This document shows positions 8,099-54,892 of a stretch of 64,000 nt of DNA, piece by piece. The position numbers and the translations under genes are program-made. The notes below the pieces were generated by a model. That model was not told the origin of the DNA. It worked only from the letters and a program-made list of their open reading frames with translations, and ran no database searches. Position 1 is the first letter of the stretch. The number at the start of each line of letters is the position of its first letter. Location: assembly GCA_963697065.1 (NCBI GenBank), contig CAVOMQ010000003.1, positions 43,974 to 107,973 on the forward strand, read 5' to 3'. The stretch is from an uncultured Gemmatimonadales bacterium (GTDB lineage Bacteria > Gemmatimonadota > Gemmatimonadetes > Gemmatimonadales > GWC2-71-9).

Positions 8099-9310
8099 TC
8101 ACCTCTCAGGCGCCAGCTTGTACACGCGAACTTCCGATTCGTTCGGATGGTACGTATAGCGTGCGACCAGATATCCGTTGGCGATCTGGAGCACCTCCAG
8201 GTCGCCCGGCATAACAGTCGTACCGAGGAACCGCCCGCTACGATCAAACACGTCCCAGGTGGCCGGGTCGCCCGTCACCGCCCACATCCGAGCCCAGAGG
8301 CGGTGCGCATCGTCAACCTTCAGCGCGGTGTAGGCGGGCTCCCGCGGAGGAAATCGAATCCATTCGAGTGCCAGGCTGTCGTCATGCCTGAGCACCGGAT
8401 CACTCCGCTGGAGACGCGCCCGCTTGAGTCGCCGCAGCAGCTCCGGTGTCACCGATCCGCGCTCCCGCCCGATCCGGATCAGGCCCAGCAGTCTACCGGT
8501 GGGAGCGCGCTGCTGTATCTCGAACGCCGAGCCGTCCGTGTAGTACCACCAGTCGTCATCCACCGCAATGGAGCCGATCTGGCCGAGTGGCGTCTGGCCG
8601 GCGACGCTGTAGTGCATGGCGAAGCCGAAGCGCTCGGCCCCGAAGAACGGGCCGAGCTCCGTCAGCTTTCCTTTGCGATCGACGTGATAGACGACAATCG
8701 TGTCGATGTCGGTCTGGCGATTCTGAGGCAGGAGCTGATTGTGCGTCGTGCCGATCATCTCGCCCGACGCGAACGCGCCGAGGATCGACAGGAACGGTCG
8801 TTCCCACCCCCCTCGGGGGAGCTTCGAGCGAATGTCGGGCGGGTTCTCGACGCGGCGGGTTTGAAGGACGGAACCCCTGCGGCTCAGTTGCATCAGCCGA
8901 TTGGCCACCCCATCCCATTCCACCACCGTACCACCGGCCATCGTGAAGAGATTCGACGGCCCTTCGCGCCCCGAGATGCCGACGACGTCGATGCCGAATC
9001 GGTAGCCACCGTCAGGCTTGAAGAAGGCGACGCGATCGTGGTCGAATTCCGCCACCACGACATTACCGTCCATCAGCCGCAGCGCGCCGGAGACGATACC
9101 GAGGTCAGCGTTGCCTTTGGCGCCCGGCCCGCCCAATGCGACAATCGGAGCCGGCTCGACTACTCGCCAGCTGTTCGTGTCCAATATTGGCGCGGCGTTC
9201 GAGACGATTCTCACCCCAGCGCTATCCCGGACGCGTGGCAGCTGTGCGTGGCACCGACCAAGCCATGCCGCCAACATTACGCTCGCGCATACGAAGCGGC
9301 TAAGGGCCAT
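8099..9310 (-). CDS. 6-bladed beta-propeller secreted protein
   Basis: Signal peptide, VRDSAGVRIVSN, GREGPS, VDDAHRLWAR..WDVFDRSGRFLG motifs. Confidence 0.7.
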   Translation of the reverse strand: MALSRFVCASVMLAAWLGRCHAQLPRVRDSAGVRIVSNAAPILDTNSWRVVEPAPIVALGGPGAKGNADLGIVSGALRLMDGNVVVAEFDHDRVAFFKPDGGYRFGIDVVGISGREGPSNLFTMAGGTVVEWDGVANRLMQLSRRGSVLQTRRVENPPDIRSKLPRGGWERPFLSILGAFASGEMIGTTHNQLLPQNRQTDIDTIVVYHVDRKGKLTELGPFFGAERFGFAMHYSVAGQTPLGQIGSIAVDDDWWYYTDGSAFEIQQRAPTGRLLGLIRIGRERGSVTPELLRRLKRARLQRSDPVLRHDDSLALEWIRFPPREPAYTALKVDDAHRLWARMWAVTGDPATWDVFDRSGRFLGTTVMPGDLEVLQIANGYLVARYTYHPNESEVRVYKLAPER

Positions 9311-10076
9311 GTCGTGCACTCTGCAGCACCCGCCGGACAGTGTCAAGCCCGTAATCGGTCTTCTCAGCGTCTTGCAAGTCCGGTCTAACAGTCCTCCCAA
9401 GGAGGCTTGCAACGAGCCGGTTCAATTGCTGGAAGGGCATCGCACCGGCAACCGGCAGTCCGTTGATGAACGACGTTGGCGTTCCAACAATGCCAAGTTG
9501 TGCGGCTTCCCGGGTATCCCGATTCACCCTGTCCTGATACATCCCGGATTGGACGCAAATGCTGTAGCGCCTCATGTCTGGAATACGGATGCTGTCCCCA
9601 ATGTCGTGCCATGGCTCGTGCGTTACTGCGGTCGCTCCGAAGCTGAACGCCGCTCGATAGTACTCCGGGAATCTCCCCTGATCGGCTGCGCACTGGCCGC
9701 CCTCGTGTAGCTGGAGCTCGGCAAGCCCGGGTTGGAATAGGAGGTTCTTGACAACAACGGCAACCACATCGGGGTAGCGCCGCCGGAGCTTCTCGATTGT
9801 GGCAGAAAAACTCACGCAATAGCCACAGGCGTAGTTCACAAACTCGACGATAACGACCGGCGCGTCGTCCGGGCCCATCCGGGGTCCTTCGGCGGCCATT
9901 TGATAGAAGAGCGTCGGGTCTATGCTTCCGTCGGGCAGCGAGGGCAACGAGAGCCGCTGCGCGCTGCGGCGCCGTTGATAGGCTGCAACCCGGTCTCGAA
10001 TGCCCAGGATAACCAGCCCGAGTGCGACGACATACAGAATCTTCGTCGCGCGGTTAAGCATCTTGGCGATTGGCAT
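9300..10076 (-). CDS. DsbA-family thiol-disulfide oxidoreductase (module 1)
   Basis: GPDDAPVVIVEFVNYACGYC and GIVGTPTSFING motifs; N-terminal TM anchor. Confidence 0.85.
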   Translation of the reverse strand: MPIAKMLNRATKILYVVALGLVILGIRDRVAAYQRRRSAQRLSLPSLPDGSIDPTLFYQMAAEGPRMGPDDAPVVIVEFVNYACGYCVSFSATIEKLRRRYPDVVAVVVKNLLFQPGLAELQLHEGGQCAADQGRFPEYYRAAFSFGATAVTHEPWHDIGDSIRIPDMRRYSICVQSGMYQDRVNRDTREAAQLGIVGTPTSFINGLPVAGAMPFQQLNRLVASLLGRTVRPDLQDAEKTDYGLDTVRRVLQSARHGP

Positions 10077-10091
10077 CTCAGAACGCCCGCC

Positions 10092-11207
10092 TCACCTATG
10101 CGTCGAGGCCGCCACCCGCCGACCAGAGCTTACGGCGGGATTGGCTTCCAGGCGATATTCGAAAATGCCTTCGCCGTTCTGACCTGCAGCGAAGAGTGTA
10201 GTGTCACCCGAGACAGCAATGGTACTCATCTCGTGGTTCAGCCCGATCACGTTGACCAACTGCCCATCCCAGTCGAAGACGTGTACATACCTGGCCGCGC
10301 GTACCCTCCCTCCGTGGGGGCCGTCGGTTCGGTGGCCGGCGAATAGCGCGTAGAGATAGCGCGACGTTGCGTCGCAGTCGATGTAGTAGAACCAATCAGC
10401 CTGAGCCCACAACGTGTGCCGACGCGGAGACATCGCCCAGTCTCCGTTTGAGGCAAATGGTACGCTTGCACGAACCACGAACAGACCAGCTGAGTCGAAG
10501 ATGTCGATTCGGCCCCCGAGCTGGTACAGCACCGCAAATCGACGTGCGACGGGACTGGCGCATGCTGCGAATCCCCCCGATGCGGCACGGCGAGCCAGCA
10601 GTGGTATTGAATCGGCTCCGAGAAGCGCTGCATTGTGCATGGCCAACAAGTGGCCACTCGTATCCGAAATGATGATTCGATTCGTATCCATGTCGCCGAT
10701 GCCGACGAGTCGGTTGCGGGCAAGCCAGAGCAAAGCATATACGTCGACGAAGGCGCTCGGTGGATGGAATATCGCATAGTCGGCCGTTGGGCGACCGGTC
10801 TCCCGCGTCATCCGCTTCAAACCGTCGTCGTAAGCCCAGATTCCGGCGTCATCACCCGGACGATGGCTGAATTGTGGCATCTTCTTGAAGTCACCGGGTC
10901 CTTCCCCATGCCGCCCCATCGAAACTGAGACCTCGCCGGTTGCAATATCCACAGCGTGCAAATAGGGATCTCCGGAGCGATCACCTACCCATAGGCGATC
11001 ACCCTGGACGCCGAGGTGTCCCGGGTCACCAATGATCGGATCGGACACGAGCAAGCGAGGTTCGGGATACTGCGGATGAAGGTCGGCGTGGGAAATCGCT
11101 GGTGTGCCGTCAGCAAGGTGGTCCAAAGGCCAGCCGGACAAGGTAGCGTGCCGACATCCGGTTGCGAGCAGGAGCGTAACTGGCCCAAGTACCCGGAGCG
11201 CCGTCAT
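10092..11207 (-). CDS. BF3164/TolB-like 6-blade propeller lipoprotein (module 1)
   Basis: Lipobox LLATGC; GRHGEGPGDF; YLYALFAG..YVHVFDWDGQ C-terminal motif. Start uncertain (11207 or 11309). Confidence 0.7.
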   Translation of the reverse strand: MTALRVLGPVTLLLATGCRHATLSGWPLDHLADGTPAISHADLHPQYPEPRLLVSDPIIGDPGHLGVQGDRLWVGDRSGDPYLHAVDIATGEVSVSMGRHGEGPGDFKKMPQFSHRPGDDAGIWAYDDGLKRMTRETGRPTADYAIFHPPSAFVDVYALLWLARNRLVGIGDMDTNRIIISDTSGHLLAMHNAALLGADSIPLLARRAASGGFAACASPVARRFAVLYQLGGRIDIFDSAGLFVVRASVPFASNGDWAMSPRRHTLWAQADWFYYIDCDATSRYLYALFAGHRTDGPHGGRVRAARYVHVFDWDGQLVNVIGLNHEMSTIAVSGDTTLFAAGQNGEGIFEYRLEANPAVSSGRRVAASTHR

Positions 11208-11581: not shown

Positions 11582-11819
11582 TGTGCTACCCTCCGTGGTT
11601 GGTTGCTCTCACTAACGACGGATTTCGCAGGACCCCGACCGAGCTACGCGCCGATGGCTGGTTAACCGACGTAGGATCGAGAGACCGTGTCTCGTCAGCT
11701 ACGCGGCTTCCGGCGACTCAGGCGGATGAAGCGGCCTCCACTCAAGCGATGGATGGTGTGCCCTCGCCATGTCGTGAGTATGCCAAGCCCCATCTTGCGC
11801 GCCACGATGTCTCCGTCCG

Positions 11820-11914
11820 GTGAAACCTCGCACCCTCAACACTCACCCATTCCCCGGATTCCGCCAGACCAGAAAACAGTGCTTTCTGCTGTTTTTCGCC
11901 CAGTTTCGCCTCGA
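11820..11914 (-). promoter_or_regulatory. Conserved intergenic element between AraC-like regulator and cargo (copy 1)
   Basis: Non-coding match to 22215-22310; contains AAAACAG-N9-CTGTTTT on the minus strand. Confidence 0.5.
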
Positions 11915-12586
11915 TTACCGATCTGTTACATATCCACCCATGCGCAGGCCGACCTCCAATACCGGCTCCCACGCTCCCATCGCCACGAGCTGCCGCCAGG
12001 TCCGCCCGAAGTACCGGTGGCACCAACGCGATACCGTCTTGACGTCGACGGCGGCCTGCTCGGCCGCCACGGCCTGCGGTTGCGCGGCCGCGATCGCCCG
12101 CGCGATCAGCTCCACGCACGACCCAAGCGCCCTCCAATCGTGGGGCAGCCATGCGCCGTATTTCCGAAGCGATCGGCGCAGCGACTCGGCATCGGCCTTC
12201 GGATCGCGGATGTCGAAGAACAAGCTGGCGAGGCCGAGCGATGCCCTGAATGCGATATACGCTGCAACATCGGTCGCATCGGGAATCCGGCGCTGACCGA
12301 TTGCGATCCTCATTTCAGGGATTGTGTCCGAGACCTCGGCGCCAAATGGCGTGAGATGCATGGCCGGGGGACACAGCAGGTTGAGTGTCGCGGACGCAAC
12401 GGCGCGAGCGCCAAACAACACCGTCGGACACCATGGACTGGCGCGCCACTGATCGACGGCCTCGGCGACACGCACCAGATGATCGTCGTCGTCCGGGACC
12501 ACCAGCAGTGTACCCAGCGGGCGCGGCGCAGGAGGCCCCGCAACAACCGCCTCCAGCGCCCCGGGTAGCAGGCAGCATACGGTCAT
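11915..12586 (-). CDS. AraC-like transcription regulator, copy 1
   Basis: Two HTH-like segments (ESLRRSLRKYG..PHDW; AAEQAAVDVKTVSRWCHRYFG); paralog at 22311-22982; ATG (MTVCC) preceded by GAGGC. Confidence 0.65.
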   Translation of the reverse strand: MTVCCLLPGALEAVVAGPPAPRPLGTLLVVPDDDDHLVRVAEAVDQWRASPWCPTVLFGARAVASATLNLLCPPAMHLTPFGAEVSDTIPEMRIAIGQRRIPDATDVAAYIAFRASLGLASLFFDIRDPKADAESLRRSLRKYGAWLPHDWRALGSCVELIARAIAAAQPQAVAAEQAAVDVKTVSRWCHRYFGRTWRQLVAMGAWEPVLEVGLRMGGYVTDR

Positions 12587-12640
12587 CAGCCAATGCCTCG
12601 AGTCGTGATCGCCCCACGCCCGCGAGCGCAGCACACCGCC

Positions 12641-12729: not shown

Positions 12730-12809
12730 TGAGGCCTCGCTGCAGTGAGGATCCGCGGCGTGTATGGTTTCATTGCGTTGACGACTTACACCGCGCGGGC
12801 TCCCCCACC

Positions 12810-13294
12810 TCACCCCTCCCCCCGATCCAGCACCCGGTACTGGATCGCCTCCCCCACATGCGCCGGCCCCACCTCGGCCGCCCCCTCCAGATCCGCCAGC
12901 GTCCGCGCCAGTTTGAGCACGCGGTGATATGCCCGCGCCGACAGCCCCAGCTTGACGATCGCCTGCTTCAGCACCGCGTCGGTCGCGGCATCGGTCCGCA
13001 CGAACTTCGCCAATTCGCGCGGCCCCATGTGCGCATTGGCATACACCCCGCGCACTTCCCGGAACCGCTCCAGCTGTCGCGCCGCGCCGCCTCCACCCGC
13101 TGTCGCACCACGGTACTCGACTCCGCCGCCTTGCGCGCCGTGAGATCGTCGTACGCCACCGGCGGCACGCTGAGGTGAATGTCCACCCGGTCGAGCAGCG
13201 GCCCCGAGATCCTGGCCCGATACCGCTGCACCGCCATCGGTGAGCAGCTGCACTGCCGCGAGGCGTCGCCCAGGTAGCCGCAGGGGCAGGGATT
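12810..13294 (-). pseudogene. comM: Orphan 3' end of comM/yifB, copy A
   Basis: [10 protein letters not shown]...[12 protein letters not shown], a direct repeat of 23211-23692; homology ends at GATT (13291-13294); 1-nt indel near 13083. Confidence 0.9.
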
Positions 13295-15286: not shown

Positions 15287-15772
15287 TCACCCCTCCCCCC
15301 GATCCAGCACCCGGTACTGGATCGCCTCCCCCACATGCGCCGGCCCCACCTCGGCCGCCCCCTCCAGATCCGCCAGCGTTCGCGCCAGTTTGAGCACGCG
15401 GTGGTATGCCCGCGCCGACAGCCCCAGCTTGACGATCGCCTGCTTGAGCACCGCATCGGTCGCGGCATCGGTCCGCACGAACCTGGCCAGCTCCCTGGGA
15501 CCCATGTGCGCATTGGCATACACCTCGCGCACTTCCCGGAACCGCCCCAGCTGTCGCGCGCGCGCCGCTTCCACCCGCTGCCGGACCACGGTACTCGATT
15601 CCGCTGCCTTGCGCGCCGTGAGATCGTCGTAGGCCACCGGCGGCACGCTGAGGTGAATATCCACCCGGTCGAGCAATGGCCCCGAGATCCTGGCCCGGTA
15701 CCGCTGCACCGCCATCGGCGAACAGCTGCATTGCCGCGAGGCGTCGCCCAGGTAGCCGCAGGGGCAGAGATT
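15287..15772 (-). pseudogene. comM: Orphan 3' end of comM/yifB, copy B
   Basis: [10 protein letters not shown]...VLDRGEG*, in frame throughout; homology to comM ends at GATT (15769-15772). Confidence 0.9.
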
Positions 15773-16241: not shown

Positions 16242-19200
16242 TCAGCGCGGCCGCTGATTGGTGCGGAGCTGCTGCCGCTGACCGGGTGTGAGGACGCTCG
16301 TCGCATTCGCGTAGTACCGGAGGTCCAGGGAGGACAACGCCTGCACCACCGGTTCCGCTCTTGCACGCAGTTCGGCATCCCCAAGCCGGGGCCCCGCGCT
16401 CACAACGAACAGGGCCAGAGGTGCGAGGAGCGCATCGGTTTCGCGCTGGTATGCTGCGCTCAACGTGGCTAGCGAGTCGAGCTGACGGCCGGTCAGGGCG
16501 ATAGCCGCGCCAGTCGTGATTATCCGTGATATCGGGTCTATTACCCACTCACGCCGCAGTGCGCTCATCGCCTGGCTGAGCCGCGTCGAATCACTCCCGT
16601 GCGCCGGTAAGCCAAGCGCCTTGAGGAGCGCGTGCGACTGGCCCTGCGGCCCGAAGTCATATTGGGCACCGAGCCGGATCTGAAATGGTGGGAAGTGCTT
16701 GCGAGTATCGCCGTACATCAGCGATTGACGAAAAGGGGGTTGACCGTGTAGCGGAATGACTCGGTAGCCGGATCGAAGCCCGTCACATACAGGAGTCGCG
16801 GATCCGGCTGCTGGACCCCAGAGAATCGCCCGAATGGCGTGCTCTGCAGATGCAGCAGGCTTACGATAGCGCCTCCAGCGTTTAGAAGCTGCGTAGTAAC
16901 TCTGAGTCGATCGGTCAGGCCAAATGAGGCTGGTGGGGCAAAATCGAGGTTAAGATCCAACTGAATTTGCCATGAGCTTCGGCAGCTCTCCGCCCCGGCA
17001 ACTCGCCCGATCTGCGCCTGAAGACATGCCCTCGCCGGAGTGGGCGCCGTTCTGAGCACACTGCGCATCTGCGCAGCCAAAGCGGAGTCGCTGACCTTTG
17101 CGGGGTCGAAGATGAATGCGGCGTCATCGCCCGATATATGGTCGCCGTTGACGTCGCCAGCGACCACCGGCGTGAATGGAATTCCTGACGTCATCTGGAT
17201 CCGAGCGCCAAGGGTAAACCACCAGACGCGATACCCAAAGGATCCGACCTATCAGCCGGTGGACGGGCCGATCATTGATCACCGTTTGCACGGCACGAGG
17301 ATCCTCCGGCGTACCCCGGCGTTGGACTTGGTCCAGGTTGAGGGAATACGTGACGTCGAGTGGGATATTCCCAAAGAGGGCTTCAGTTCCGACGTGCACC
17401 TCGACTTGCTCTGCCACCCCGTTCAAGTCCGACACCCACCGGGTCACGCTGGCGAATCTAGGATCCACCCGCGCAGTCCCCGGACCGATCAGCCCGGTCG
17501 TTGGATCGATGCCGGCCGGATCTGCGAAGACCGGACGTCCATCTTCCTGCTGCAGCCGGAACACCGGGGCTGCCGGAAGATTGAGATCGGTGAACGACTC
17601 GATGTGGCGTCGCAGCGCCAGGGCGACCTGCGGCTGCACCCCCCATTGGCCAAGCCGAAAGCCGGTCCCGACCGATGCCTTCCACATCAGGGGTGGGCTG
17701 TATCGGGGGTCAAGCAACTGTACGGACGGTACGCTCGCGGCGAATGCCGGCATCCCAGCACTGTCTGCGCAGGTTGCCGGCGGAGGGCCCGCCTGCCAAT
17801 TGGCGGCTGGAACTGCCGGCCCCACGCACGACAAGCTCTCGGGCGCACCCCGCAGGCCGGTATTCGCGCTGATGCCATCGAGTCGGCTCGGGGACACGGT
17901 TCCCCAATAGGCACCGAGGCTTCCGTAGACGACCTGACCGACCGGGCCGACGTTCTGGACAGTCACATCGTTTGGCCCCAGTACGCCCGCCATGTTTGTC
18001 ATCGTGTTGGTGCCAGGAATTCGCACCCGAACGAACGGCACCTGGCCCTTCGGTCGGTGCACGATCCAGGCGATTCCAATGCGCGGGGTGAGTTCGATCA
18101 CAGCAGGGACGTGATCCGTCCGGTACCCGAACACTGACTCGACAACCGCGTTCAACGGTGGGGTTGCGCCAACCGTGAGGTAGTCAGCGCGTAATCCAGC
18201 GTCAACACTGACCCGCCGGGAGGCTTCCCAGAGGTCCGCGATCCAGACGCTCGGATGCCACGTGACGACGCTCTGGCTGCTCGGATCCAGGAGTCGCGAG
18301 TACGCTCCGGGCTGGTTTTGCTCGAGTTCGGCGAGCGACAGGTAGGCGAACGTGCCGTTTGGATTCGCACCGTTCTCGGCTCGCGTCCGCTCGATCTGCA
18401 AATCCTCCCCCAATCGGACGTGGTGAACATTGCCGTAAAGCTGGCGGGCGAGTTCGTCACGCACTTCCACGCGGAGGGTCGAAGCGTCACTCTGCGCGCC
18501 CCCACCGCCGAATTGCACCGTCGTGCGATCCTGACTGCGCCGTGTCGAATACTGTACCGATCAACACGGATCCGGTCGGGGTCGCAAGCAACGGCTCTGT
18601 ACGGCGCGACGACCGCGTGACAGCAGCCCGGAAATCGTTGACAAAGCCACCCAGATAATTCAGCGCTGTCAGCGAATACCTGTTGACATCATCTCGCCGG
18701 GTAACGGCCGTCGTTGGATAGGCGGCAGTTCCCACGCCTCCGCCGCTCTCGCGATGCCAAGTCGGCCAAGCCGAAAGGGTGACCCGATTCGTTGACCCCG
18801 GTTCCCAATCGACACTGAAGAATCCAGCTGCATCGAGCGTCTGGTCCGACCCAACACCGCGGCTCGGACGCAACGGAATGCCGTGCTCGGACAGCGCGGT
18901 TGAGATGCTCGTAATCGAATCGAGCGCCAGGCCTCGCTCGGCGAGCAGTGGTTCTGGCGCATCGAGAATCGACCGCAGCGGCTGAGATTGGAGCATCGCG
19001 GTCCAGGAAGCAAAGAAATGCCCATCCAGCCACGGGATCGGTCCGGAAGCTGCGCCCGATGACAGGAATTGCCGTGATGCGGGAAACGGCGACGCCGGGT
19101 CCGTCCAGGCGACACGGGGGTCGCTGTACGCCGCCCGCCCGACGGCCGTGGCCGTATTCGAACCTCGCTTGAGCGTTACATCCAGTTCGGCGCCCGGATT

Positions 19201-19851: not shown

Positions 19852-19853
19852 CG

Positions 19854-21011: not shown

Positions 21012-21166
21012 CAATTTGTCCCCCGCCGCGCCACACACAGGAGTCGCCTAGTCCGCTGCCAGCGCCATTGGAGATGCGCGTGAGGAGCTGGACCGCGGTG
21101 TGCCAGCCCCCCCCGCGAATAGTAAAGCATGATGCGCCTGAACGCCGGCGACGAGACCACCGGTGA

Positions 21167-22186: not shown

Positions 22187-22214
22187 TTCGTTTCGTTCGA
22201 CGAAGTCTCTGCGG

Positions 22215-22310
22215 GGTGAGACTCGCCGCACTGAACACCTATCAATTCCCCGGATTCCGCCATACCAGAAAACAGCGCTTTCTGCTGCTTTTCGCCCAGT
22301 CACGCCTCGA
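22215..22310 (-). promoter_or_regulatory. Conserved intergenic element between AraC-like regulator and cargo (copy 2)
   Basis: Matches 11820-11914 (e.g. TCCCCGGATTCCGCCA.ACCAGAAAACAG.GCTTTCTGCTG.TTTTCGCCCAGT). Confidence 0.5.
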
Positions 22311-22982: not shown

Positions 22983-23036
22983 CTGTCGATGCCTCGGCTT
23001 GCGGCCACCAACCTCCCGCGAGCGCATCACACCGCC

Positions 23037-23104: not shown

Positions 23105-23109
23105 GTTCA

Positions 23110-45684: not shown

Positions 45685-47307
45685 CTAGTACCGCCATCCT
45701 TTCGTATCCGCCCCCGCCGGCGCATGGGCGAGCAGCTGCGCCTCCATCTTCTGGAGAATCTCCGGCATCCGCGGCCCCCAGCAGTGCGGCGCCATCGGCT
45801 GGAAGACGATCTCGCCGGTCCACTTCGGATTCGCCGTGGTGGTGAGGAAATCATCGAGCATGTGGACGCCCATGTTGAGGTAATACGTGTCCATGGCACC
45901 GACGTAGACGTTGATCTTGTCAGCCACCTTCGGCCCCAGCGTCGACCAGTTGGTCTGGAGGATGTTCCGCAGGTCGTAGTGTTGCTTCCAGTAGTCGGCC
46001 ACCTGGTGGTCGATCACACCGGTCACCTTGTTCCAGATCGGCGCCGGGTAGCCGCCCGCTCCGACCGGACTGTACGTCGCCTGCCAGATGTCCCACTGAC
46101 CGCCGGAGCGGCCGCTGTCGCCCACCACCAGCTCGTACCAGTTCTCGTCCTTCATCATCGTGGTGATGTTGCCATCGGGCCGCCGGACGTCGGGGCGTTC
46201 CACCTTCATCCAGCCGTGATCGACCCAATAGGCGTTGCTGTCGCTGTAGATGTTCACGATCTGGTGGTAGCGGAAGTCCACCGCGTCGGGACAGAGCGCC
46301 CAGGTGCCGCCGTAGAAGTCGGGGTAGAAGACCTGCTGGGAGAGCGCGATCCATCCGCCCGTCGATCCGCCGGTGAGGAGCCGCGCCCACGGCTGGCCGA
46401 TCACGCGGAAGCGCTTCTCGACCGCCGGGATCAGCTCCTGCATGATCGCGTCGCCGTACGGGCCGTTGTTGGCCGAGTTGACGCCGTAGGAATCGTCGTA
46501 ATAGGGCGACGGATGCTGGAGCGAGACCATGATCACCCGCGGCGTGCTGTCGGCGAGCCATTGCGCGTTGGCACCGCCGCCCGGCGCGCGCAGCGAGAAG
46601 TGGCCTTCGTCGTAGACGATCGGGTACTTCACGTCGGGGTGTGTGTCATAGCCCTTCGGCAGCAGGACGATGGCGCCGAGGAAGATCGGCTGCCCCCACC
46701 ACTTCGAGAGAATGTCGCTCTTGATCCTGATGTGCTTGACATATTGGTCGTCAGCCGGCTCGGTGATCGGCGGAATCACCTGGTCAGCGACAAGCCGGAT
46801 CGGCGTCGACGACTTGGGATCGAAGGTGATCTGCACCGGCTTGCCATGGATGTTCCCCGGCGAGCTCTTCCAATCCTGTCCTTCCCACTGGTCCATGTGC
46901 AGCCAGACCACATGCCCGTCGGCGCGCGCGAACCGGGTGTAGATGTTGACGAACGGTTCCACCCAGTAGGTGCCGGCGGGGATGTCGCGCAGCGAGCGCG
47001 CCGGGTAGCCGAAGGTCGATGCGTCGATCACGGCCGGAGCGCCGGGCTTGAGTGCCTCGACATTCACGCCGAAGAGCGGCACGCCGTCTTCTCCGGTCTG
47101 GTCGATCGGGGTGCGGCGGGCGTCGTTGACCCGGGTGATCGCCACATACACGCGCCCGGTGATCGGGCCGGCGTGCGCGGACGCGGGGAACGAGATCTCG
47201 AAACGCGGGCCGGTGGCACGCTGGCCCGAGATGGCGGCGATGGGGAGTATGGTGATGATCGCCATGCAGACGGGCTGCGGCCAACGCCGTCGGACAGTCA
47301 GTATCAC
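45685..47307 (-). CDS. Secreted alpha/beta hydrolase (putative esterase family)
   Basis: IVLLPKGYD, NNGPYGDAIMQELIPAVE, LLTGGSTGGW nucleophile elbow; GGAGG RBS with GTG. Confidence 0.8.
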   Translation of the reverse strand: MILTVRRRWPQPVCMAIITILPIAAISGQRATGPRFEISFPASAHAGPITGRVYVAITRVNDARRTPIDQTGEDGVPLFGVNVEALKPGAPAVIDASTFGYPARSLRDIPAGTYWVEPFVNIYTRFARADGHVVWLHMDQWEGQDWKSSPGNIHGKPVQITFDPKSSTPIRLVADQVIPPITEPADDQYVKHIRIKSDILSKWWGQPIFLGAIVLLPKGYDTHPDVKYPIVYDEGHFSLRAPGGGANAQWLADSTPRVIMVSLQHPSPYYDDSYGVNSANNGPYGDAIMQELIPAVEKRFRVIGQPWARLLTGGSTGGWIALSQQVFYPDFYGGTWALCPDAVDFRYHQIVNIYSDSNAYWVDHGWMKVERPDVRRPDGNITTMMKDENWYELVVGDSGRSGGQWDIWQATYSPVGAGGYPAPIWNKVTGVIDHQVADYWKQHYDLRNILQTNWSTLGPKVADKINVYVGAMDTYYLNMGVHMLDDFLTTTANPKWTGEIVFQPMAPHCWGPRMPEILQKMEAQLLAHAPAGADTKGWRY

Positions 47308-47441
47308 GGTTCCTCCTGGAGGACTGAACTATAGCCCGGGCCGGACCAAGCCTGGCGCTCCCTGCCGGCCAATGCCCGACTGACGCCATTCTCGCCCGCG
47401 TCAGATCCTGATCCGAGCGCGCACCACGCGTTCCAATCCGC

Positions 47442-47470
47442 TTGACACTCGTTCGCAACGCGAGTATTAC
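47442..47470 (+). promoter_or_regulatory. sigma70-type promoter TTGACA-N17-TATTAC
   Basis: Both boxes conserved at 51934-51962 while the spacer differs. Confidence 0.65.
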
Positions 47471-47471
47471 C

Positions 47472-48134
47472 TTGTTTGTACACCAGCAGGATCCGGATCC
47501 CCTGACCGCATTGGACATCGATTGCGTTGGCGCACTGCATGGGCGACTGCTCGCCGGATACCCTGAGGCGGGCCCCGAGATCGCGGCTATCGCCTACGGT
47601 CCGCTGGTCGAGTACCTCATCGCCCATCACCCTTGCGTTGACCCCGGCGCGGTTCACGACGCCGTGGCCGACGCGGTCGTTGCCTATCTCGACCGCCCGG
47701 CCCGGGCCAACGGGGTCGGCGGACGCCAGGTCATGGCGCATCTTCAGCTTGCCGCGTGGCGGAACATCCTGAACCATCGGCGCCGGGAAGGTCGGCTCAA
47801 GCGGCGTGAACAGCGTTACGCAGCCGACCTCGGCCGGCGGCGGCGCGATTCGGACCGGCGGGTTGTTGCTCTTCTGGGTTCCGCGGGGAAAGTATTAGAG
47901 GAGGCGATAGATCCGGGCGAGTCCGCGGAAGTGTCAGCGATGGAGCCCGCCGGGTGGAGCACCGAGGAACGGACCGTCTGGGTGCTCTTCCGGGCCGGCG
48001 AACGACGAACTGCGGAGTACGCCGCGGCGCTCGGGATCACGGGTCGGCCCGTGTCAGACCAGCGGGTGATCGTCAAGCGCATCAAGGAGCGGCTCCGGGT
48101 GCGCGTGAAGCGGGGGGGGGGGCGTAGACGATGA
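47472..48134 (+). CDS. ECF sigma-factor-like regulator, copy 1
   Basis: Region-2-like VHDAVADAVVAYL..HLQLAAWRNILNHRRRE and region-4-like ERTVWVLFRAG..EYAAALGI..VKRIKERLR; TGA overlaps the dsbA ATG. Start inferred. Confidence 0.65.
   Translation: MFVHQQDPDPLTALDIDCVGALHGRLLAGYPEAGPEIAAIAYGPLVEYLIAHHPCVDPGAVHDAVADAVVAYLDRPARANGVGGRQVMAHLQLAAWRNILNHRRREGRLKRREQRYAADLGRRRRDSDRRVVALLGSAGKVLEEAIDPGESAEVSAMEPAGWSTEERTVWVLFRAGERRTAEYAAALGITGRPVSDQRVIVKRIKERLRVRVKRGGGRRR
48112..48122 (+). repeat. G11 homopolymer at the 3' end of ECF copy 1
   Basis: Counted directly. Confidence 0.85.
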
Positions 48135-48982
48135 GGTTCAGCAACGGGATTACAAACGGCTTGATGGTTGTCTCGGTCGTCTGCGCCGTCAGTCTGACGG
48201 GTATGCAGGTTTGGGAGCGGTTCGGTCCGGCGGTGCCGCCCACTGGGCCGTCGGCGCTTCGTGGCGCCGACACGGTCCGCATTCCGGATTGGCAACACGA
48301 CACAGTCGGTGGCCATCATCTGGGACTCGCGACAGCTCCTGTTACGATCATCGAGTTCGCGGACCTCGAGTGCCCCGTATGCCGGCAGTTCACTATCGGT
48401 GCTTTGGCATACATACGTGCGAAATACCCAACGGATGTGCAAGTCGTGTTTCGCCATTGGCCACTGAGCTATCATCATTTCGCGTACCCCGCGGCGCGGG
48501 CCGCTGAGTGCGCGGCCGCCCAGGGGCGATTTGATGCATTCCAGCAGTTGGTGCACGCCAAACAGGACTCGCTGGGGCTGAAGGCGTTCGGGGACTTTGC
48601 CCGGGAGGCGGAAGTGCCGGATGCGCGGGCGTTCGCCACGTGCAATGCCCAAACCGGTCCCGTTGCAGCGGTCGAAGCCGATATCAACGTCGCGAAGGCC
48701 GTGGGCGGTCGGGGGACGCCGACCATCGTCATCAACGGCTTGCGGTTAACTGGTGCGCCCGATTCCGCCTCGCTCGGTCGGCTCATCGAATCCGCGTTGA
48801 AGCAAATCCACGTTTCCGGCGGTACCAGCCCCGGGAAGGGGATTTCCCGGACTCGGCTGGAGCTGCCAACTACCGGCACTCTCGATCACCTGGAAACGCC
48901 TGCGGCCGTGGCATCCAACATCTTCACGCCGAACCCGAATCACGCCATCGCAACGCCCGAAGGAACCATACTCAGGAGGTAA
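48131..48982 (+). CDS. DsbA-family oxidoreductase (module 3)
   Basis: GLATAPVTIIEFADLECPVC, FRHWPLSYH, GGRGTPTIVING; N-terminal TM. Confidence 0.85.
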   Translation: MRFSNGITNGLMVVSVVCAVSLTGMQVWERFGPAVPPTGPSALRGADTVRIPDWQHDTVGGHHLGLATAPVTIIEFADLECPVCRQFTIGALAYIRAKYPTDVQVVFRHWPLSYHHFAYPAARAAECAAAQGRFDAFQQLVHAKQDSLGLKAFGDFAREAEVPDARAFATCNAQTGPVAAVEADINVAKAVGGRGTPTIVINGLRLTGAPDSASLGRLIESALKQIHVSGGTSPGKGISRTRLELPTTGTLDHLETPAAVASNIFTPNPNHAIATPEGTILRR

Positions 48983-49365: not shown

Positions 49366-51477
49366 GTGATTGTCCTTCAGCTATTGGCCGCGCTATCCAC
49401 GAATGGGGTAGCACAAGGCTGCCGAGATGGCGCGACGTGGAAGGACTCGGCCGAAGCGCTGATTCGCCGTTTGGAGCAACACGATTCGAGTGCACGGTCG
49501 AGGCTCGTTCCATACGCTGGTTGCCTCGTCGCCTATGCAGCTGAGCGTCAACTCGGTGCTGCTGACGCGAAACTGATGGCCAAGGTGGCCTTGGTGATGG
49601 CGGGGCCGATTTCGCCGCCGGAATCAACCCGCACGGCTCGCGAGGATCTCTGGCGCTTCCCGGCGGTGCAGGCATTGCGGCGGGGGCTGGCCGTCGACAG
49701 CGGTGACGCGTGGTACGCCGAGCAGCTCGAACGGATCACACCGTATCCATACATCTGGCTCGCGCCGGCCCGGGAACTGACACACCTCCGTGCCCTCGCG
49801 GCCCGCAACGCGATGCTCCCGGTCGATCTTGCCATGACCCGCATCCGGCTCGAACTTGAAACCGGTTCTCTCGATTCGGCGGCGCTGGCGTTCCGTCGAC
49901 TCGATTCAATATCGATCCCATTGCCGCAGTGGACCCATCTCGCTGCCGAGATCACCTTTGCGCGGGGCGATTCGGCGGCGGCCCGAAGCACCTACTACGC
50001 CGGCGCTGCCGCGATCTGCGATTCCAGTGATCGACAGATCTATACTCAGGAACTCTCGTGGATCGCGACGCCAGAGGAGTTGGCAATGTGGGACTCGCTG
50101 CCAATGACACCAGGCGCGCATCGTGATTGGTTGGAGGCGTTCTGGGCGCGGCGGGATCTGGCAGACGGGCAGTTGCCCGGTACTCGGTTGCCGGAGCAGT
50201 TCCGCCGCTGGCGCGAGGCGTTGCGCGACTACCGCTGGGACAGCGACGGCGATGTGGCGCTTGGGACGCCGGATCACGGCTTTGCCGAAGAGGATGGCGT
50301 CTGGAAATCCGACGACCTTCGCGTCCTCGGACCCAGTAACGCCGTGAACCGATGGCGGGCTAGGACCCGGATTCTCGATGACCGAGGTGCCATTGTGATG
50401 CGGCACGGCGATCCGATGCAGCTTCCACTGCCGCCGGGAAAGGCGTCAATCACAGAGCAGAACCTTTCGTGGCAGACACCGCGAGGGTCACTCATCATCG
50501 GCTTTTCCCGGATCAATGTCGCGAGCGGCCGCTTCGGCATGGTCGCGCGAAACATTCCGATGGGGGATCCCATGGTTGCCTGCGCATTCGATGCTCGACT
50601 CTGTCAACTTGCGCGCTTTGCGCACAGCCCGCTTGATCCCGCGGTGGCGACATCACACGGAATACTGGGCCAAGTCCTCAGATACTACGGAATGGAACGT
50701 GCGAGGGCCGAGCACACCGACGCCAACACGACCACATTCCGCGACTCCCTCGGCGCCATCACCCAGGCATTCGGTATCCCGAACGGCGGCGTACTTGTCG
50801 TTTTCGCCGTGCCCGCCGGCAGACTGACCAAGAATCCCGATGTGCCCGCCTTCGCCGCCAATCTCCGGGTGATCATCGGCGACTCCGCCGCGGGGCGCAT
50901 CGTCGCGGCGCTCGACTCTGTGCGCCATTGGCACACGGACGCCCCGGTCAGCGCCGATGCATGGCTGAGCGCGTACCTCACCGTTCCAGCGCCTGTCGGA
51001 ACCTGGGATGTGGCCATCACCATCTCCGACACGGCGAAGACGAGGGGCTCCGGCGTGCGCCTCGATGCCATTCCGGTGGTCATGTTCGACGGGAAGGCGC
51101 TCCAACTCAGCGACCCGATCCTCGGCCGCAGTGACGCGGGGCTGGTCTGGCATCACGACGGCGTCGCCATCCCCCTCAACCCCACCAATGCCTGGCGTAC
51201 CGCCGAACCGGTCGAGCTCACCGTGGAGGCCGATGGTCTCGTTCCCGGGCGCAGCTACAGCACCCGCTTCGAACTGTGGAAGGTGGCCGGGCACCCCAAA
51301 GCCCCCAGCGTCACCGTGGCGTTCACGGCGAAGACCGACAGCGCGCACGAGGTGATCCAACGCGAGCTCTCGGTACGCGAGCTCGATCCGGGCGACTACC
51401 GGCTGGTGATCCGGCTGCAGGACGCCGTCACGAAACAGGCCGTGACTCGCGAGCGCCGAGTGGCGGTGCGCCGGTAG
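49366..51477 (+). CDS. GWxTD-domain-like secreted protein with C-terminal Ig-like folds
   Basis: WIATPEELAMWDSL..WLEAFWARRD..EQFRRW..LDDRGAIVMRHGDP follows the GWxTD-domain pattern. Confidence 0.65.
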   Translation: MIVLQLLAALSTNGVAQGCRDGATWKDSAEALIRRLEQHDSSARSRLVPYAGCLVAYAAERQLGAADAKLMAKVALVMAGPISPPESTRTAREDLWRFPAVQALRRGLAVDSGDAWYAEQLERITPYPYIWLAPARELTHLRALAARNAMLPVDLAMTRIRLELETGSLDSAALAFRRLDSISIPLPQWTHLAAEITFARGDSAAARSTYYAGAAAICDSSDRQIYTQELSWIATPEELAMWDSLPMTPGAHRDWLEAFWARRDLADGQLPGTRLPEQFRRWREALRDYRWDSDGDVALGTPDHGFAEEDGVWKSDDLRVLGPSNAVNRWRARTRILDDRGAIVMRHGDPMQLPLPPGKASITEQNLSWQTPRGSLIIGFSRINVASGRFGMVARNIPMGDPMVACAFDARLCQLARFAHSPLDPAVATSHGILGQVLRYYGMERARAEHTDANTTTFRDSLGAITQAFGIPNGGVLVVFAVPAGRLTKNPDVPAFAANLRVIIGDSAAGRIVAALDSVRHWHTDAPVSADAWLSAYLTVPAPVGTWDVAITISDTAKTRGSGVRLDAIPVVMFDGKALQLSDPILGRSDAGLVWHHDGVAIPLNPTNAWRTAEPVELTVEADGLVPGRSYSTRFELWKVAGHPKAPSVTVAFTAKTDSAHEVIQRELSVRELDPGDYRLVIRLQDAVTKQAVTRERRVAVRR

Positions 51478-51657: not shown

Positions 51658-51779
51658 TCATTTCACCCGCTTGCAGAGATCCATCATCGCCGCCTGGCAC
51701 GCCCGCGACCGGATATCGTGCCGCGTGCCGACGAAACTCCGCCGCACCGCGTCCACCTGCCCATGCACACTGTAGCCGA
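51658..51779 (-). pseudogene. cinA: Orphan 3' end of cinA
   Basis: 101-bp direct repeat (51679-51779 vs 55066-55166, 6 mismatches by eye) with its own tail and stop (DLCKRVK*). Confidence 0.85.
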
Positions 51780-51780
51780 C

Positions 51781-51907
51781 GGCACGCTGGCCCGAGAGGG
51801 CGGCCACGGGGGGCATGGCGACTGTCGCGATGCAGGCGAGCAGAGGCCGATGCGGCCGGAAGGTGGGTCTCACGGTTCCTCCTCGAGTGGTGAACCATAG
51901 CCCGGGC
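51781..51907 (-). pseudogene. Diverged copy of the 5' end and RBS of the esterase gene
   Basis: GGCACGCTGGCCCGAGA matches 47215-47231; CACGGTTCCTCCT...TGAAC.ATAGCCCGGGC matches about 47305-47341. Confidence 0.75.
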
Positions 51908-51933
51908 CTCACGCTGCATGGGTCCCACACCGC

Positions 51934-51962
51934 TTGACAGCCGTTCCCGGCGCAGGTATTAC
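51934..51962 (+). promoter_or_regulatory. sigma70-type promoter TTGACA-N17-TATTAC (copy 2)
   Basis: Read directly; same context as 47442-47470. Confidence 0.65.
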
Positions 51963-51963
51963 C

Positions 51964-52615
51964 TTGCTTGTACACCAGCAGGACTTGGATCCCCTTGGCC
52001 GGACCAGACGTCGATCGCGCTGGCGCACTGCACCTGCGGCTGCTGGCCGGGCACCCCGAGGCGGGGGCCGGAATCGCGGCGATCGCCTACGGTCCACTGG
52101 TGACCTACTTGGGCTCCCGTTTCCCTTACGTTGACCCGGACGCGGCTTACGACGCGGTCTCCGACGCGGTCATGGCCTACCTCGAACAGCCGGCCCGGGC
52201 CAAGGCGGTCGACGGACGCCAGCTCATGGCCCACCTTCAGCTTGCCGCCTGGCGTAACATGTTCAACCGTTTGCGTGAGGATGGCCGGCGCAGGCAGCGC
52301 GAGCGGCGATACGGCGACGCCAGGAACTGGCGGCGGCTGGAGTCGGCGCGGCGTGTTGTTGCTCTTGTGGGTTCGGCGGGGAAGGTATTACAGGAGGCGA
52401 TAGATCCGGGCGAGTCCACGGAAGTGTCAGCGATGGAGCCCGCCGGGTGGAGCACCGAGGAACGGACCGTCTGGGTGCTCTTCCGGGCCGGCGAACGACG
52501 AACTGCGGAGTACGCCGCGGCGCTCGGGATCACGGGTCGGCCCGTGTCAGACCAGCGAGTGATCGTCGAGCGCATCAAGGAGCGGCTCCGGGTGCGCGTG
52601 AAGCGGGGGGGGGGG
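51964..52615 (+). CDS. ECF sigma-factor-like regulator, copy 2 (1-nt indel near 52000; stop position depends on G-tract length)
   Basis: Paralog of 47472-48134. With G11 the frame runs on into peptide P4; with G10 it would stop at TGA near 52657. Confidence 0.6.
52605..52615 (+). repeat. G11 homopolymer at the 3' end of ECF copy 2
   Basis: Counted directly. Confidence 0.85.
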
Positions 52616-52690
52616 CGCTGCGAGCAACGATCGTTGTGTTCGGAATACCGGTCTGTGAGATCATTGTTCAATTCCAGCAAGGAGCGTCAG

Positions 52691-52975: not shown

Positions 52976-53045
52976 TGATTCAAACCGACGTGACGACGTC
53001 CCGGTCGGCCGGTTCCGCGGCCGGGCGCCCGCGTCCGGCGGTGCG

Positions 53046-54194
53046 ATGCAACGCGTCCTCGTGAACGCGGTGAGTTTATGCGCACTTGCTGGTTTCGCCG
53101 CCGCCTGTGCCCGCGACGCCAAGTCTGGAGCGGCGGGCCCGGACCAGAATCAGGCCGACCTGTTGCCGGACGATCACTTGCACCCCGTGGTGGTATCGGG
53201 CAGGCTGCTGGTGTCAAGCACCGCGTTCGGACGGCCCGAGTACGCACTGACGCAGGGGAATCGGCTCTGGATCTCCGACCAGGCTGGCGACCCATACATT
53301 CACCTTATCGATATTTCGGGGCGCCGAATTGTCGCATCCTTTGGTCACACCGGTGTCGGGCCCGGGGACTTTGATCAGGGAATCTCCGGTCTGTCGCGAC
53401 GGCCTGGGGACGCCACCGCAGCCTGGGCGCTCAGTCTCGGTCTCCGGCGCCTCACGAGGGTGCCCGCGATCAGCGCCGACACCGTGGTCACAATTCCCCT
53501 CACTGCACCCCGCTTTGCCGATCATGCAGAGTGGCTTACACGGGGCCGCCTGTTGCTGATCGGCGAAACGGATACCAGCCGCTTCGTGCTCGCTGATTCC
53601 AACGGGAAGCCGCTCCGGGTTGTGTCGGGCGATCTGGTCGGCGGGGATTCCATTTCGCTGGCGACACGAGTGGACCGCTCGAGCGGCCTTTCGCTTTGCG
53701 TGGCACCTGACGGTGCCCGTTTTGCCGTCTTCTACATTCACGCCGGACGCATGGATCTCTATGACTCCAATGCCGCACTGATTCGCCATGGCGACGTGCC
53801 GTTTGCGATCAACGGCTCATTCCGGCGCGATTCCGCAGGCCGCTGGCACGCGCACGACATCCGCCGCTACTACGAAGCCTGCTCGAGCAGTTCGACCCGT
53901 ATCTACGCGCTGTTCAGCGGCAAGCGGCTCGGACCGCGGTACACCGGAGCTGACGTCGAAGCGCAGTTCGTGCACATCTTCGATTGGACCGGCCGGTTCC
54001 TGGGTGCACTGCACCTCGATCAACCCCTGGCCGGGATGACAACGAGTGGCGACAGCGTGATGTACGGCATCGGGGCCGATGGCAGCCGGATCTATTCGTA
54101 CCGGCTGCCGTCGTTCAACTCCGCCCCAGCGGTGTCCGTTACGCCGACGAAGTCTAGCGGACTACTATTCGACGCCGGGGCCTCCTTATGGTGA
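53046..54194 (+). CDS. BF3164/TolB-like 6-blade propeller lipoprotein (module 4)
   Basis: Lipobox FAAAC; FGHTGVGPGDF; RIYALFSGK..FVHIFDWTG; paralog of 10092-11207. Confidence 0.7.
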   Translation: MQRVLVNAVSLCALAGFAAACARDAKSGAAGPDQNQADLLPDDHLHPVVVSGRLLVSSTAFGRPEYALTQGNRLWISDQAGDPYIHLIDISGRRIVASFGHTGVGPGDFDQGISGLSRRPGDATAAWALSLGLRRLTRVPAISADTVVTIPLTAPRFADHAEWLTRGRLLLIGETDTSRFVLADSNGKPLRVVSGDLVGGDSISLATRVDRSSGLSLCVAPDGARFAVFYIHAGRMDLYDSNAALIRHGDVPFAINGSFRRDSAGRWHAHDIRRYYEACSSSSTRIYALFSGKRLGPRYTGADVEAQFVHIFDWTGRFLGALHLDQPLAGMTTSGDSVMYGIGADGSRIYSYRLPSFNSAPAVSVTPTKSSGLLFDAGASLW

Positions 54195-54892
54195 AGGTCC
54201 ACATGATGGCTCGGTCGCACGATTGGGTGACAATCGTGCTGTTGCTCGTGGCAGGAATACTCGGCGGGTATGCGGCCTATGTACGATTCGGACCAGGACA
54301 GGGTGCCCGCGGCGACGAACCGGCATCAGCGCAATATGGCCGAGTTGGCGCGGAACGCTTCCGGCGTGCTGCCGAGACTGGGGATCGCATCGGACCGGAG
54401 AATGCCCCGATAACCGTCGTCGTCTTCTCCAACTACCTTTGTGAGTACTGCCGACGGTTTGAACCGACCCTGACACAACTCCATCATCGATATCCCGACG
54501 AGGTCGCGATCGTCTGGAAACACTACGCTCCCCTTCTTACACGCCGAGCATCAACGGTCGACCTCGCGGCCGACTGTGCGGCGGATCAAGGGGATTTCGC
54601 GCCGTTCAATCATGCCCTGTTCACCGACACACTTGTGGCACGCGTGCCGGACCGATGGCTGCGTATCGGTCAGCGCATCGGGATCGACACCGCAACCATG
54701 GCCGGATGCATTCGGTCGCGACGCCATGCCGCCGACGTAATGCACGACACGGAGGAAGGGCAGGCGCTGGGCGTGACAGGCACGCCGACCTCGTTCATCA
54801 ACGGCGTTCGCATCGTGGGCCAGGTACCATTCGACATCCTGGACTCAGTCGTATCGTCGCAACTTCGTAGCGGGCGGCCCAGTACAAAGTGA
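54188..54892 (+). CDS. DsbA-family oxidoreductase (module 4)
   Basis: GPENAPITVVVFSNYLCEYC, GVTGTPTSFING; N-terminal TM. Confidence 0.85.
   Translation: MVKVHMMARSHDWVTIVLLLVAGILGGYAAYVRFGPGQGARGDEPASAQYGRVGAERFRRAAETGDRIGPENAPITVVVFSNYLCEYCRRFEPTLTQLHHRYPDEVAIVWKHYAPLLTRRASTVDLAADCAADQGDFAPFNHALFTDTLVARVPDRWLRIGQRIGIDTATMAGCIRSRRHAADVMHDTEEGQALGVTGTPTSFINGVRIVGQVPFDILDSVVSSQLRSGRPSTK

Follow-up and report, generated by a model that had tools for sequence, protein, structure and literature searches.

Cassettes of cysteine-rich mini-proteins and DsbA-type oxidases in a soil Gemmatimonadales genome appear to be inherited as cargo units behind exchangeable regulator heads

Results

Gene content of the four modules

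We analyzed a stretch of 64,000 nt (the window) from an uncultured Gemmatimonadales bacterium (assembly GCA_963697065.1, contig CAVOMQ010000003.1, positions 43,974 to 107,973) and examined four modules (M1 to M4), in each of which a head regulator (R) precedes a cargo block with an exported cysteine-rich mini-protein (P), a DsbA-like oxidoreductase (D) and further genes. The host genome is a soil metagenome-assembled genome (MAG) of 3.18 Mb in five contigs with ~67% GC, and the window is part of contig C3. An initial annotation had placed four modules here and had proposed a 2 x 2 design, in which cargo class and regulator class are combined independently. The modules were borne out by open reading frame (ORF) lists and translations, and the evidence below supports a cargo that is inherited as a linked unit behind heads that are exchanged. 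Families were assigned with Pfam and NCBIfam profiles, and pairwise identities were determined by blastp.

M1 lies on the minus strand in the order R1, P1, B1, D1, X1. Its head regulator R1 (11915-12634) is an orphan whose conserved start is probably MTVCCLLPG at 12586, and it is contiguous with a comM 3' fragment on the same strand (copy c, 12808-13294). P1 (11306-11581) is an exported mini-protein of 91 amino acids with a signal peptide and 6 Cys, B1 (10092-11207) is a six-bladed TolB-like propeller lipoprotein (signal LLLATGC), and D1 (9300-10076) is a membrane-anchored DsbA-like oxidoreductase of what we call the class I clade (site EFVNYACGYC; Thioredoxin_4 match 2.7e-17), followed on its 3' side by the exported protein X1 (8099-9412). 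M2, also on the minus strand, has the order R2, D2, P2, X2 and a split outer-membrane barrel. R2 (22311-23138) belongs to the R1 family and probably starts at 22982; D2 (21506-22303) is a class II DsbA (EFGDFECPAC; 1.7e-28), and P2 (21167-21463) is an exported acidic mini-protein with 8 Cys. The rest of the M2 cargo (16242-21038) consists of X2 (19854-21038), in which a signal of the 6-bladed propeller/NHL kind was weak, and of an outer-membrane barrel that resembles TonB-dependent receptors and is spread over several ORFs (CarboxypepD_reg, OMP_b-brl_4). The barrel (16242-19851) occupies at least three consecutive ORFs, reflecting either a pseudogene or sequencing frameshifts.

The other two modules lie on the plus strand. 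M3 has the order R3, D3, P3, X3, where the head R3 (47442-48134) is an orphan two-domain helical protein with an ECF-sigma-like predicted fold (ECF, extracytoplasmic function), D3 (48131-48982) is a class II DsbA (EFADLECPVC; 2.6e-24), P3 (48985-49278) is an exported mini-protein with 8 Cys, and X3 (49366-51477), a protein of 703 amino acids, is the last gene of the cargo. M4 has the order R4, P4, B4, D4. Its head R4 (51968-52642) belongs to the R3 family and has no stop codon before P4 (52691-52975), an exported 6-Cys mini-protein with its own AAGGAG-N5-ATG; then follow the propeller lipoprotein B4 (53046-54194; signal ALAGFAAAC) and D4 (54188-54892), a DsbA of the class I clade (VFSNYLCEYC; 4.1e-18). 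A 101-nt repeat of 94% identity (51679-51779 and 55066-55166) brackets the M4 unit, and one short-read contig joins across.

All four peptides have a Sec-type signal peptide ending in an AxA-like site, and the mature parts of P1 to P4 contain 6, 8, 8 and 6 Cys. D1 to D4 passed the cut-offs of both Thioredoxin_4 (PF13462; 63.9-100.3 bits against 23.2) and DSBA (PF01323). Each has its CxxC at residues 81-112 and one N-terminal hydrophobic segment upstream that, from the primary structure, reads as a membrane anchor. The initial annotation had called B1 and B4 BF3164-type lipoproteins. Both have the lipobox Cys, and B1 exceeded the cut-off of PF15869 (TolB_like; 35.4 bits against 29.2), but B4 stayed below it at 16 bits and neither matched any NCBIfam model, those of the BF3164 type included. 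Pfam and NCBIfam returned no family for the peptides, R1 to R4, X1 or X3, the last giving only a sub-threshold GWxTD hint.

The gene orders and active sites in the window were as first described. The 6-Cys peptides come with the order peptide, propeller lipoprotein, DsbA and with NYxCxYC sites (NYACGYC in M1, NYLCEYC in M4), and the 8-Cys peptides with the order DsbA, peptide and with CPAC or CPVC sites (DFECPAC in M2, DLECPVC in M3). The regulators cross these classes, R1 being 68% identical to R2 and R3 76% to R4, while the DsbAs pair D1 with D4 (36%, E 1e-37) and D2 with D3 (49%, E 2e-67); the cross pairs of DsbAs share 26-30%, and the two regulator families share no similarity. The propellers B1 and B4 are 36% identical, and P2 and P3 are 34% identical (E 2e-4). 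The grouping of P1 with P4 as one peptide class did not stand: blastp found no similarity between them, and they share the number of Cys but not the framework (C-7-C-14-C-4-C-2-C-6-C in P1, C-8-C-2-C-5-C-17-C-7-C in P4).

The cargo is inherited as a linked unit

Since four modules are too small a sample to judge the crossing, a wider sample was needed to show that it did not arise by chance. We searched the whole host genome by tblastn with the module proteins and inspected the hits locus by locus. The neighborhoods of all hits in six further genomes were also fetched and annotated with hidden Markov models made from the window proteins and with a signal-peptide/cysteine scan. The host encodes 13 Thioredoxin_4 proteins, 11 of which lie beside a Cys-rich signal-peptide ORF or a propeller and thus represent cassettes, while two look like housekeeping genes with high GC at third codon positions and no peptide. 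The second of these (C5:163804) was considered as a VKOR fusion and rejected, its long N-terminus being an artefact of ORF calling; the host genome has a single VKOR homologue. Across 41 genomes of the genus the number of Thioredoxin_4 copies ranged from 1 to 16.

We then compared 54 DsbAs from seven genomes of one genus (the host and six congeners) in a maximum-likelihood tree of the DsbA domains. The DsbAs encoded 3' of a peptide and a B-type propeller formed one clade (support 99/96), with one long-branch exception just outside; the clade enlarged to take in this exception had a support of 96/93. This class I clade is nested within the radiation of CPxC enzymes, and its members lack the active-site proline (CxYC, CxHC and similar). 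M1 and M4 fall inside it and M2 and M3 outside, as the initial annotation had led us to expect, although neither M1 and M4 nor M2 and M3 are sister pairs. When we counted label changes on the tree, the architecture (peptide-propeller-DsbA against DsbA and peptide only) changed once, as compared to 6-11 times in 300 label shuffles.

The peptides followed the enzymes. A class I framework, C-7/8-C-10..15-C-4..7-C-2-C-6..9-C, was found in 11 of 14 class I peptides, one of them from an Acidobacteriota MAG. Within class I, the CGYC clade (M1 and the genomes G064 and G013) has peptides of the form C-7/8-C-14-C-4-C-2-C-6-C, and the C(G/E)HC clade has peptides of the form C-7-C-15-C-4-C-2-C-7-C. P4 is the outlier: it aligns with the class I family over the signal peptide and at the C-terminal tail, while two Cys have moved. 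In class II, peptides of the 'ECVGEW', 'CC.C' and M2/M3 types are each tied to their own DsbA clade. Some modules were also retained whole from one genome to another: between M3 and its counterpart G018_254k the identities were 57% for the head, 64% for the DsbA, 65% for X3 and 36% for P3, and between C5_78k and G018_27k they were 83% for the head and 85% for the DsbA. These results support the conclusion that the peptide, the DsbA and their partners are inherited as a linked unit. The claim that peptide and DsbA co-evolve as a unit thus held as far as co-inheritance is concerned, which is what the data show; a matching of enzyme to substrate goes beyond them and would be a further step.

The number of Cys, the gene order and the NYxCxYC site did not hold as general rules, being contradicted by other cassettes. 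The combination of 8 Cys, a CPxC site and the order DsbA-then-peptide was rejected as a rule, as the locus C1:1002565 has a 6-Cys peptide 3' of a CPAC DsbA, C5:68187 has an 8-Cys peptide 5' of its DsbA, and relatives with 4, 5, 7 and 10 Cys occur. NYxCxYC was similarly rejected as a signature of class I, whose other sites include DLYCGHC, DFLCGHC, NFYCSHC, DYSCGWC, TFTCTFC and DYACEHC.

Further cassettes showed how far each arrangement extends. A third class I cassette in the host (C1:556-560 kb) contains a P1 homologue (C1:557013), a propeller, a DLYCGHC DsbA and, on its 3' side, an X1 homologue (C1:559453-560423), with a REC/LuxR-like protein in front; P1 orthologues were found in G064 and G013. 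In another class I cassette (C2:61314-65709) the propeller is split by an IS3-family insertion sequence (orfA/orfB, 62064-63839) and the DsbA (DFLCGHC) is intact. Class II cassettes also occur on C1 and C5. On C5 (72672-84300) we found three tandem units of ~4.2 kb, each with a PhzF 3' fragment, a 30%-identical R1-type head and cargo. In this array the first DsbA is frameshifted, and 3' of the third head a protein of 435 amino acids with 12 Cys takes the place of a DsbA. All species genomes were scanned with the propeller alignment, and a peptide, a propeller and a DsbA without the proline were again found together in other MAGs of the Gemmatimonadales and in one of the Acidobacteriota (OZ244217.1), most of these peptides sharing the six-Cys framework. 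In the Acidobacteriota MAG, two tandem 6-Cys peptides with the class I framework, a propeller and a YGCGFC DsbA stand alongside a divergently transcribed canonical ECF sigma factor and an anti-sigma-like gene. In Longimicrobiales MAGs (L080, L081, L090, L092), the DsbAs encoded 3' of distant B-type propellers had F(Q/E)CPFC sites, indicating that the loss of the proline is particular to the class I clade of the Gemmatimonadales and not bound to the propeller as such.

Heads are exchanged between cargo types

Between modules, the identities of the heads disagreed with those of their DsbAs in both directions. M2 and G018_300k have heads that are 88% identical and DsbAs that are 29% identical and of different classes, the cargo of G018_300k being class I. 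Similarly, the heads of M3 and M4 share 76% and their DsbAs 27%. The reverse was found for M1 and its cargo orthologue in G064, with 50% identity for the head and 72% for the DsbA. The R1 tree has a tight clade (96/98) in which heads of three kinds of cargo stand together: those of M1 and G018_300k precede class I cargo, that of M2 precedes class II cargo, and that of G018_284k, which comes directly after comM, precedes a third kind. The M2 DsbA is sister (95/83) to a G030 DsbA located behind an R3-type head. On the DsbA tree the head type required 3 changes for 4 R3 tips, within the 2-4 changes seen in shuffles, and regulator type showed no association with cargo class (table [[4,8],[1,3]]; Fisher p = 1).

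Class I cargo was also found elsewhere behind LuxR-like helix-turn-helix (HTH) or receiver-like proteins, beside a canonical ECF sigma factor that passed the Sigma70_r2 threshold and was accompanied by an anti-sigma-like gene, or without any regulator. At an orthologous position, the comM-adjacent head is followed by DsbA, P2 and X2 in the host and by a 365-aa lipoprotein, an insertion sequence and a propeller in G018. Because the architecture follows the DsbA clade while the head type scatters with discordant identities, the cargo is the unit and the heads are what is exchanged. The observations support the conclusion that head and cargo are shuffled as separate blocks, in agreement with the swapping behind interchangeable heads that was first proposed. 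The principle of crossing in the 2 x 2 design therefore stood, but the system is of an n x m kind, in which head types number at least five and cargo types exceed two.

Sharp junctions and repeated flanks

Self-comparison of the DNA showed where head homology ends. The segment 11804-13294 is 82% identical to 22200-23692 and extends from the comM 3' fragment over a short tandem repeat and the regulator to ~110 nt past the regulator stop; the M1/M2 homology stops there, which makes the R1 3' flank (11804-11914, minus strand) the head-cargo junction. This conserved flank contains a hairpin and T-run, CAGCAGAAAGCACTGTTTTCTGG, at 11869-11891. In the flanks of M1 and M2 (the M2 copy at 22265-22287), CAGCAGAAAGC(A/G)CTGTTTTCTGG forms a short hairpin and then a T-run, and a hairpin with T-run followed by GGTNTGGCGG was found directly 3' of every R1-type stop codon. 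It follows even R1-type heads that are only 45-50% identical (G018, G064), where the stems carry compensating changes. A strict form of the post-R1 pattern matched one site in the genome, the M1 copy being one base off, and a relaxed pattern recovered both window copies. The recurrence of the hairpin with compensating stem changes suggests that it is a functional cis element belonging to the head, and it could be a terminator, an attenuator or an operator. The first ~100 nt of the mechanical D2 ORF lie within the conserved head flank, and the true start of D2 is therefore further downstream.

The second pair of repeats (47209-48124 and 51775-52617) is ~84% identical. Here the identity of M3 and M4 is perfect through a tract of 11 G residues (G11; 48112-48122 in R3 and 52605-52615 in R4) and one more base, beyond which it is lost at once. 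In M3, the regulator frame closes within an ATGA that also holds the D3 start. In the R4 frame, 25 codons after the G11 tract run through the AAGGAG-N5-ATG into P4, giving a regulator-peptide ORF of 335 amino acids, and in G018 (L010, 254599-256053) an R3-type head and its DsbA form a single ORF of 484 amino acids. These fused frames would reflect either a coupling that is programmed and depends on slippage or a homopolymer error introduced by long-read assembly. A TTGACA-N17-TATTAC sequence (47442-47470 and 51934-51962) is conserved upstream of R3-type heads in three genomes and looks like a promoter of the housekeeping rather than the ECF type. Since it overlaps the mechanical ORF starts of R3 and R4, their true starts lie further downstream.

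Over the last 224 nt of the head (52392-52615 in R4), R3 and R4 differ at only 3 positions (99% identity), as compared to 73-80% identity in the remainder, and from its pattern of differences we read this tract as a recent recombination or conversion tract ending at the cargo boundary. Such tracts would also be expected under concerted evolution alone, in which the modules are old paralogues without cargo exchange, the heads are homogenized by gene conversion and the cargo diverges freely. The comM fragments of 93-98% identity and the near identity of the two comM-region heads of G018 to each other fit this explanation as well. Conversion cannot, however, derive class I and class II cargo, with their different DsbA clades and gene content, from one ancestral module, nor does it agree with the comM-adjacent orthologous head that carries different cargo in the host and in G018 (one such case) or with the closest relative of the M2 DsbA standing behind an R3-type head in G030. 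We therefore consider concerted evolution alone unlikely.

The comM 3' end, ~480 nt long, is present at 12808-13294, 15293-15772 and 23214-23692 in the window and at C1:531812-532240. A full comM copy (23171-25800) appears frameshifted near 23650. Fragments of the comM 3' end also lie upstream of R1-type heads at distant G018 loci and in another MAG (L058, L059, L061), and the anchor fragment therefore travels with the head. The duplication of housekeeping-gene fragments along with the heads could also be read to mean that the heads do not regulate the cargo. They would then simply reside where recombination is frequent, as at the comM 3' end, in the esterase/cinA gap and at the PhzF 3' end, and cassettes would merely land beside them; some cassettes indeed have no recognizable regulator. 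Against this, 13 of 16 full-length R1-type heads, at many loci of five genomes, are followed by DsbA or peptide cargo on the same strand. The overlap of the R3 stop with the D3 start and the cis element after every R1 stop likewise tie head to cargo, and both head families were found only in genomes with such cassettes, so that this alternative seems quite improbable.

Arrays of this kind might also have been created during assembly, if allelic versions from co-occurring strains had been joined in tandem. The genome is a soil MAG with repeats of 82-98% identity, and three public soil runs contain window sequence at low depth as contigs of 150-600 nt, which are too short to span the units. On the other hand, the independent single-contig MAG G018 has a like array at comM with other cargo, further arrays with other flanks lie on other contigs, and the four modules differ wholly in cargo, which allelic collapse would not yield. 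An assembly artefact is thus a very remote explanation.

Identity of the head regulators

The regulators had initially been labelled AraC-like (R1, R2) and ECF-like (R3, R4). No HTH_18 or HTH_AraC match was found for R1 or R2 in Pfam or NCBIfam, R2 giving only HTH_28 at 18.5 bits, below the cut-off. We modeled R1 from 15 sequences and R3 from 7 with AlphaFold (AF2) and compared the models with the PDB by Foldseek. The R1 model (pLDDT 91) combines a small alpha/beta domain at the N-terminus with a multi-helix HTH domain at the C-terminus, with eight helices over residues 104-216. Its Foldseek matches, to NarL/FixJ proteins and to AraC DNA-binding domains (Rns, MarA), were weak, with E > 0.2 throughout and E 0.9-2.8 and TM 0.4-0.5 for the AraC domains. 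The R1 type formed 8 clusters in a search of 5.8 billion proteins, all unannotated and none with a precomputed Pfam domain, and was found in 11 of 61 related genomes, all of one genus. The helical C-domain of R1 weakly recalls the double-HTH DNA-binding domain of AraC/XylS proteins, from which R1 differs in lying below every Pfam and NCBIfam threshold and in its Foldseek values.

Neither R3 nor R4 matched Sigma70_r2, Sigma70_r4 or any other Pfam or NCBIfam profile at E <= 0.01. The R3 model (pLDDT 81) is all-helical, with two domains bridged by a long helix, and 9 of its top ten Foldseek hits were sigma factors, 8 of them ECF (SigL, sigma-E, BldN, SigW, AlgU, SigH), every one at E > 0.5; at the domain level TM reached 0.7 (SigC region 2) and 0.5 (SigD4). 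The type occurs in 3 of the 61 related genomes and has two remote, unannotated relatives among the 5.8 billion proteins. No anti-sigma gene lies beside R3 or R4, the next gene being the DsbA in M3 and the peptide in M4. R3 weakly resembles ECF sigma factors in its sigma2-linker-sigma4-like helical architecture and in nearly all its top hits, and it differs from them by the missing profile match, the missing adjacent anti-sigma gene and an upstream promoter of the housekeeping type. As far as the models go, "AraC-like" and "ECF-like" are reasonable descriptions of shape, not of family membership; the fold resemblance was weak, and the HTH_18 and sigma-70 profiles gave no match.

Discussion

We interpret the four modules as part of a set of paralogous cassettes, 4 of at least 11 in the genome, whose cargo is inherited as a unit behind exchangeable heads, and we give this interpretation a probability of about 0.7. 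Each cassette combines a Sec-dependent Cys-rich mini-protein of ~55-70 residues with its own membrane-anchored DsbA-type oxidase. Class I, as in M1 and M4, consists of the peptide, a TolB-like propeller lipoprotein and the DsbA, in this order; in class II, as in M2 and M3, a CPxC DsbA adjoins the peptide, and further exported proteins come after the two. The head would comprise an orphan HTH regulator, its own promoter and a short 3' cis element, often together with a housekeeping-gene fragment (the comM 3' end, esterase/cinA pieces). The cargo appears to have no regulator of its own and would be expressed from the head, which may set the timing of expression. Since head homology ends at sharp junctions, ~110 nt past the R1/R2 stop and immediately beyond the G11 tract near the end of R3 and R4, one and the same head would drive unrelated cargo. 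The private DsbA presumably oxidizes the neighboring mini-protein in the periplasm and is re-oxidized by the single VKOR.

Alternative cargo would be replaced or stacked by recombination in the repeats of head and flank, probably through homologous recombination or gene conversion there, including Campbell-type or unequal tandem insertion of alternative alleles of the locus. A bolder proposal is that of a recombinase-free, integron-like combinatorial system, in which portable heads serve as homology anchors and promoterless cassettes, each for a disulfide-knotted secreted mini-protein and its oxidase, are exchanged and stacked. We regard it as possible, though it is the less probable extension. 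If true, it would give each strain a specific, differently wired repertoire of envelope or secreted mini-proteins with matched oxidases, a conotoxin-like diversification in a bacterium.

Several points weigh against cargo units behind exchangeable heads. The regulator label depends on HTH-like sequence and weak fold matches, neither head family reaching a profile threshold, and the regulation of cargo by heads would be a step read from gene arrangement. Similarity of heads within a genome could partly be due to gene conversion rather than to cargo exchange, and the 99% tract at the 3' end of R3 and R4 fits either. Class II is a grade rather than a clade, with 4-10 Cys and either gene order. 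The test of head independence was low in power because only 17 modules had typed heads, 4 of them R3. In addition, all genomes are long-read MAGs, in which sequencing errors may account for the lengths of G11-type homopolymers and for several frameshifts (in comM, in a C5 DsbA and in the M2 barrel), and the short-read contigs support the sequence only piecewise, being too short to reach the array structure or the G11 length.

On the view that cargo units stand behind exchangeable heads, the separation of the two provides an experimental handle, as peptide and DsbA could be co-expressed as a unit and the heads tested as switches. The cassettes are abundant and highly variable within one soil genus (1 to 16 DsbA paralogues per genome). 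Their sharp junctions, marked by the hairpin element, the G11 tract and the duplicated ends of housekeeping genes, would make them a natural case of operon rewiring by recombination. If the specificity of DsbA for its peptide is real, such pairs could serve the production of disulfide-rich peptides.

Comparison with known systems

The combination of a Cys-rich exported mini-protein, a private DsbA and a propeller is without description in the papers and family libraries that we searched. Uropathogenic E. coli provides an example of an oxidoreductase dedicated to one substrate and encoded beside it, namely DsbL/DsbI with AssT. In the Bacillus subtilis prophage SP-beta, bdbA and bdbB are encoded beside their substrate in the sublancin 168 (sunA) operon (PMC4336743, PMC6391423). 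The cassettes resemble such private-oxidase systems in that a DsbA-type (Thioredoxin_4/BdbD-like) oxidase stands in an operon with a small, exported, disulfide-bonded product. Unlike the sublancin operon, they have no ABC exporter, glycosyltransferase or immunity gene, use a Sec signal peptide in a diderm, and share one VKOR in place of a private DsbB. They also differ in their number, a genome having about a dozen paralogues whose peptides are unrelated, and in having a propeller as partner and orphan regulators that can be exchanged.

With integron cassettes, polymorphic toxin/immunity arrays and bacteriocin loci they share an apparently promoterless cargo behind a conserved expression unit and a build-up of tandem alleles at one fixed place in the chromosome. 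They are set apart from polymorphic toxin arrays by a cargo that does not form a toxin/immunity pair. In the ORF lists for 8-24 kb and 47-55 kb we noticed no integrase gene or attC-like site, but no search aimed at them was made. The cassettes differ from integrons in their duplicated flanking housekeeping-gene fragments, which point to homologous recombination.

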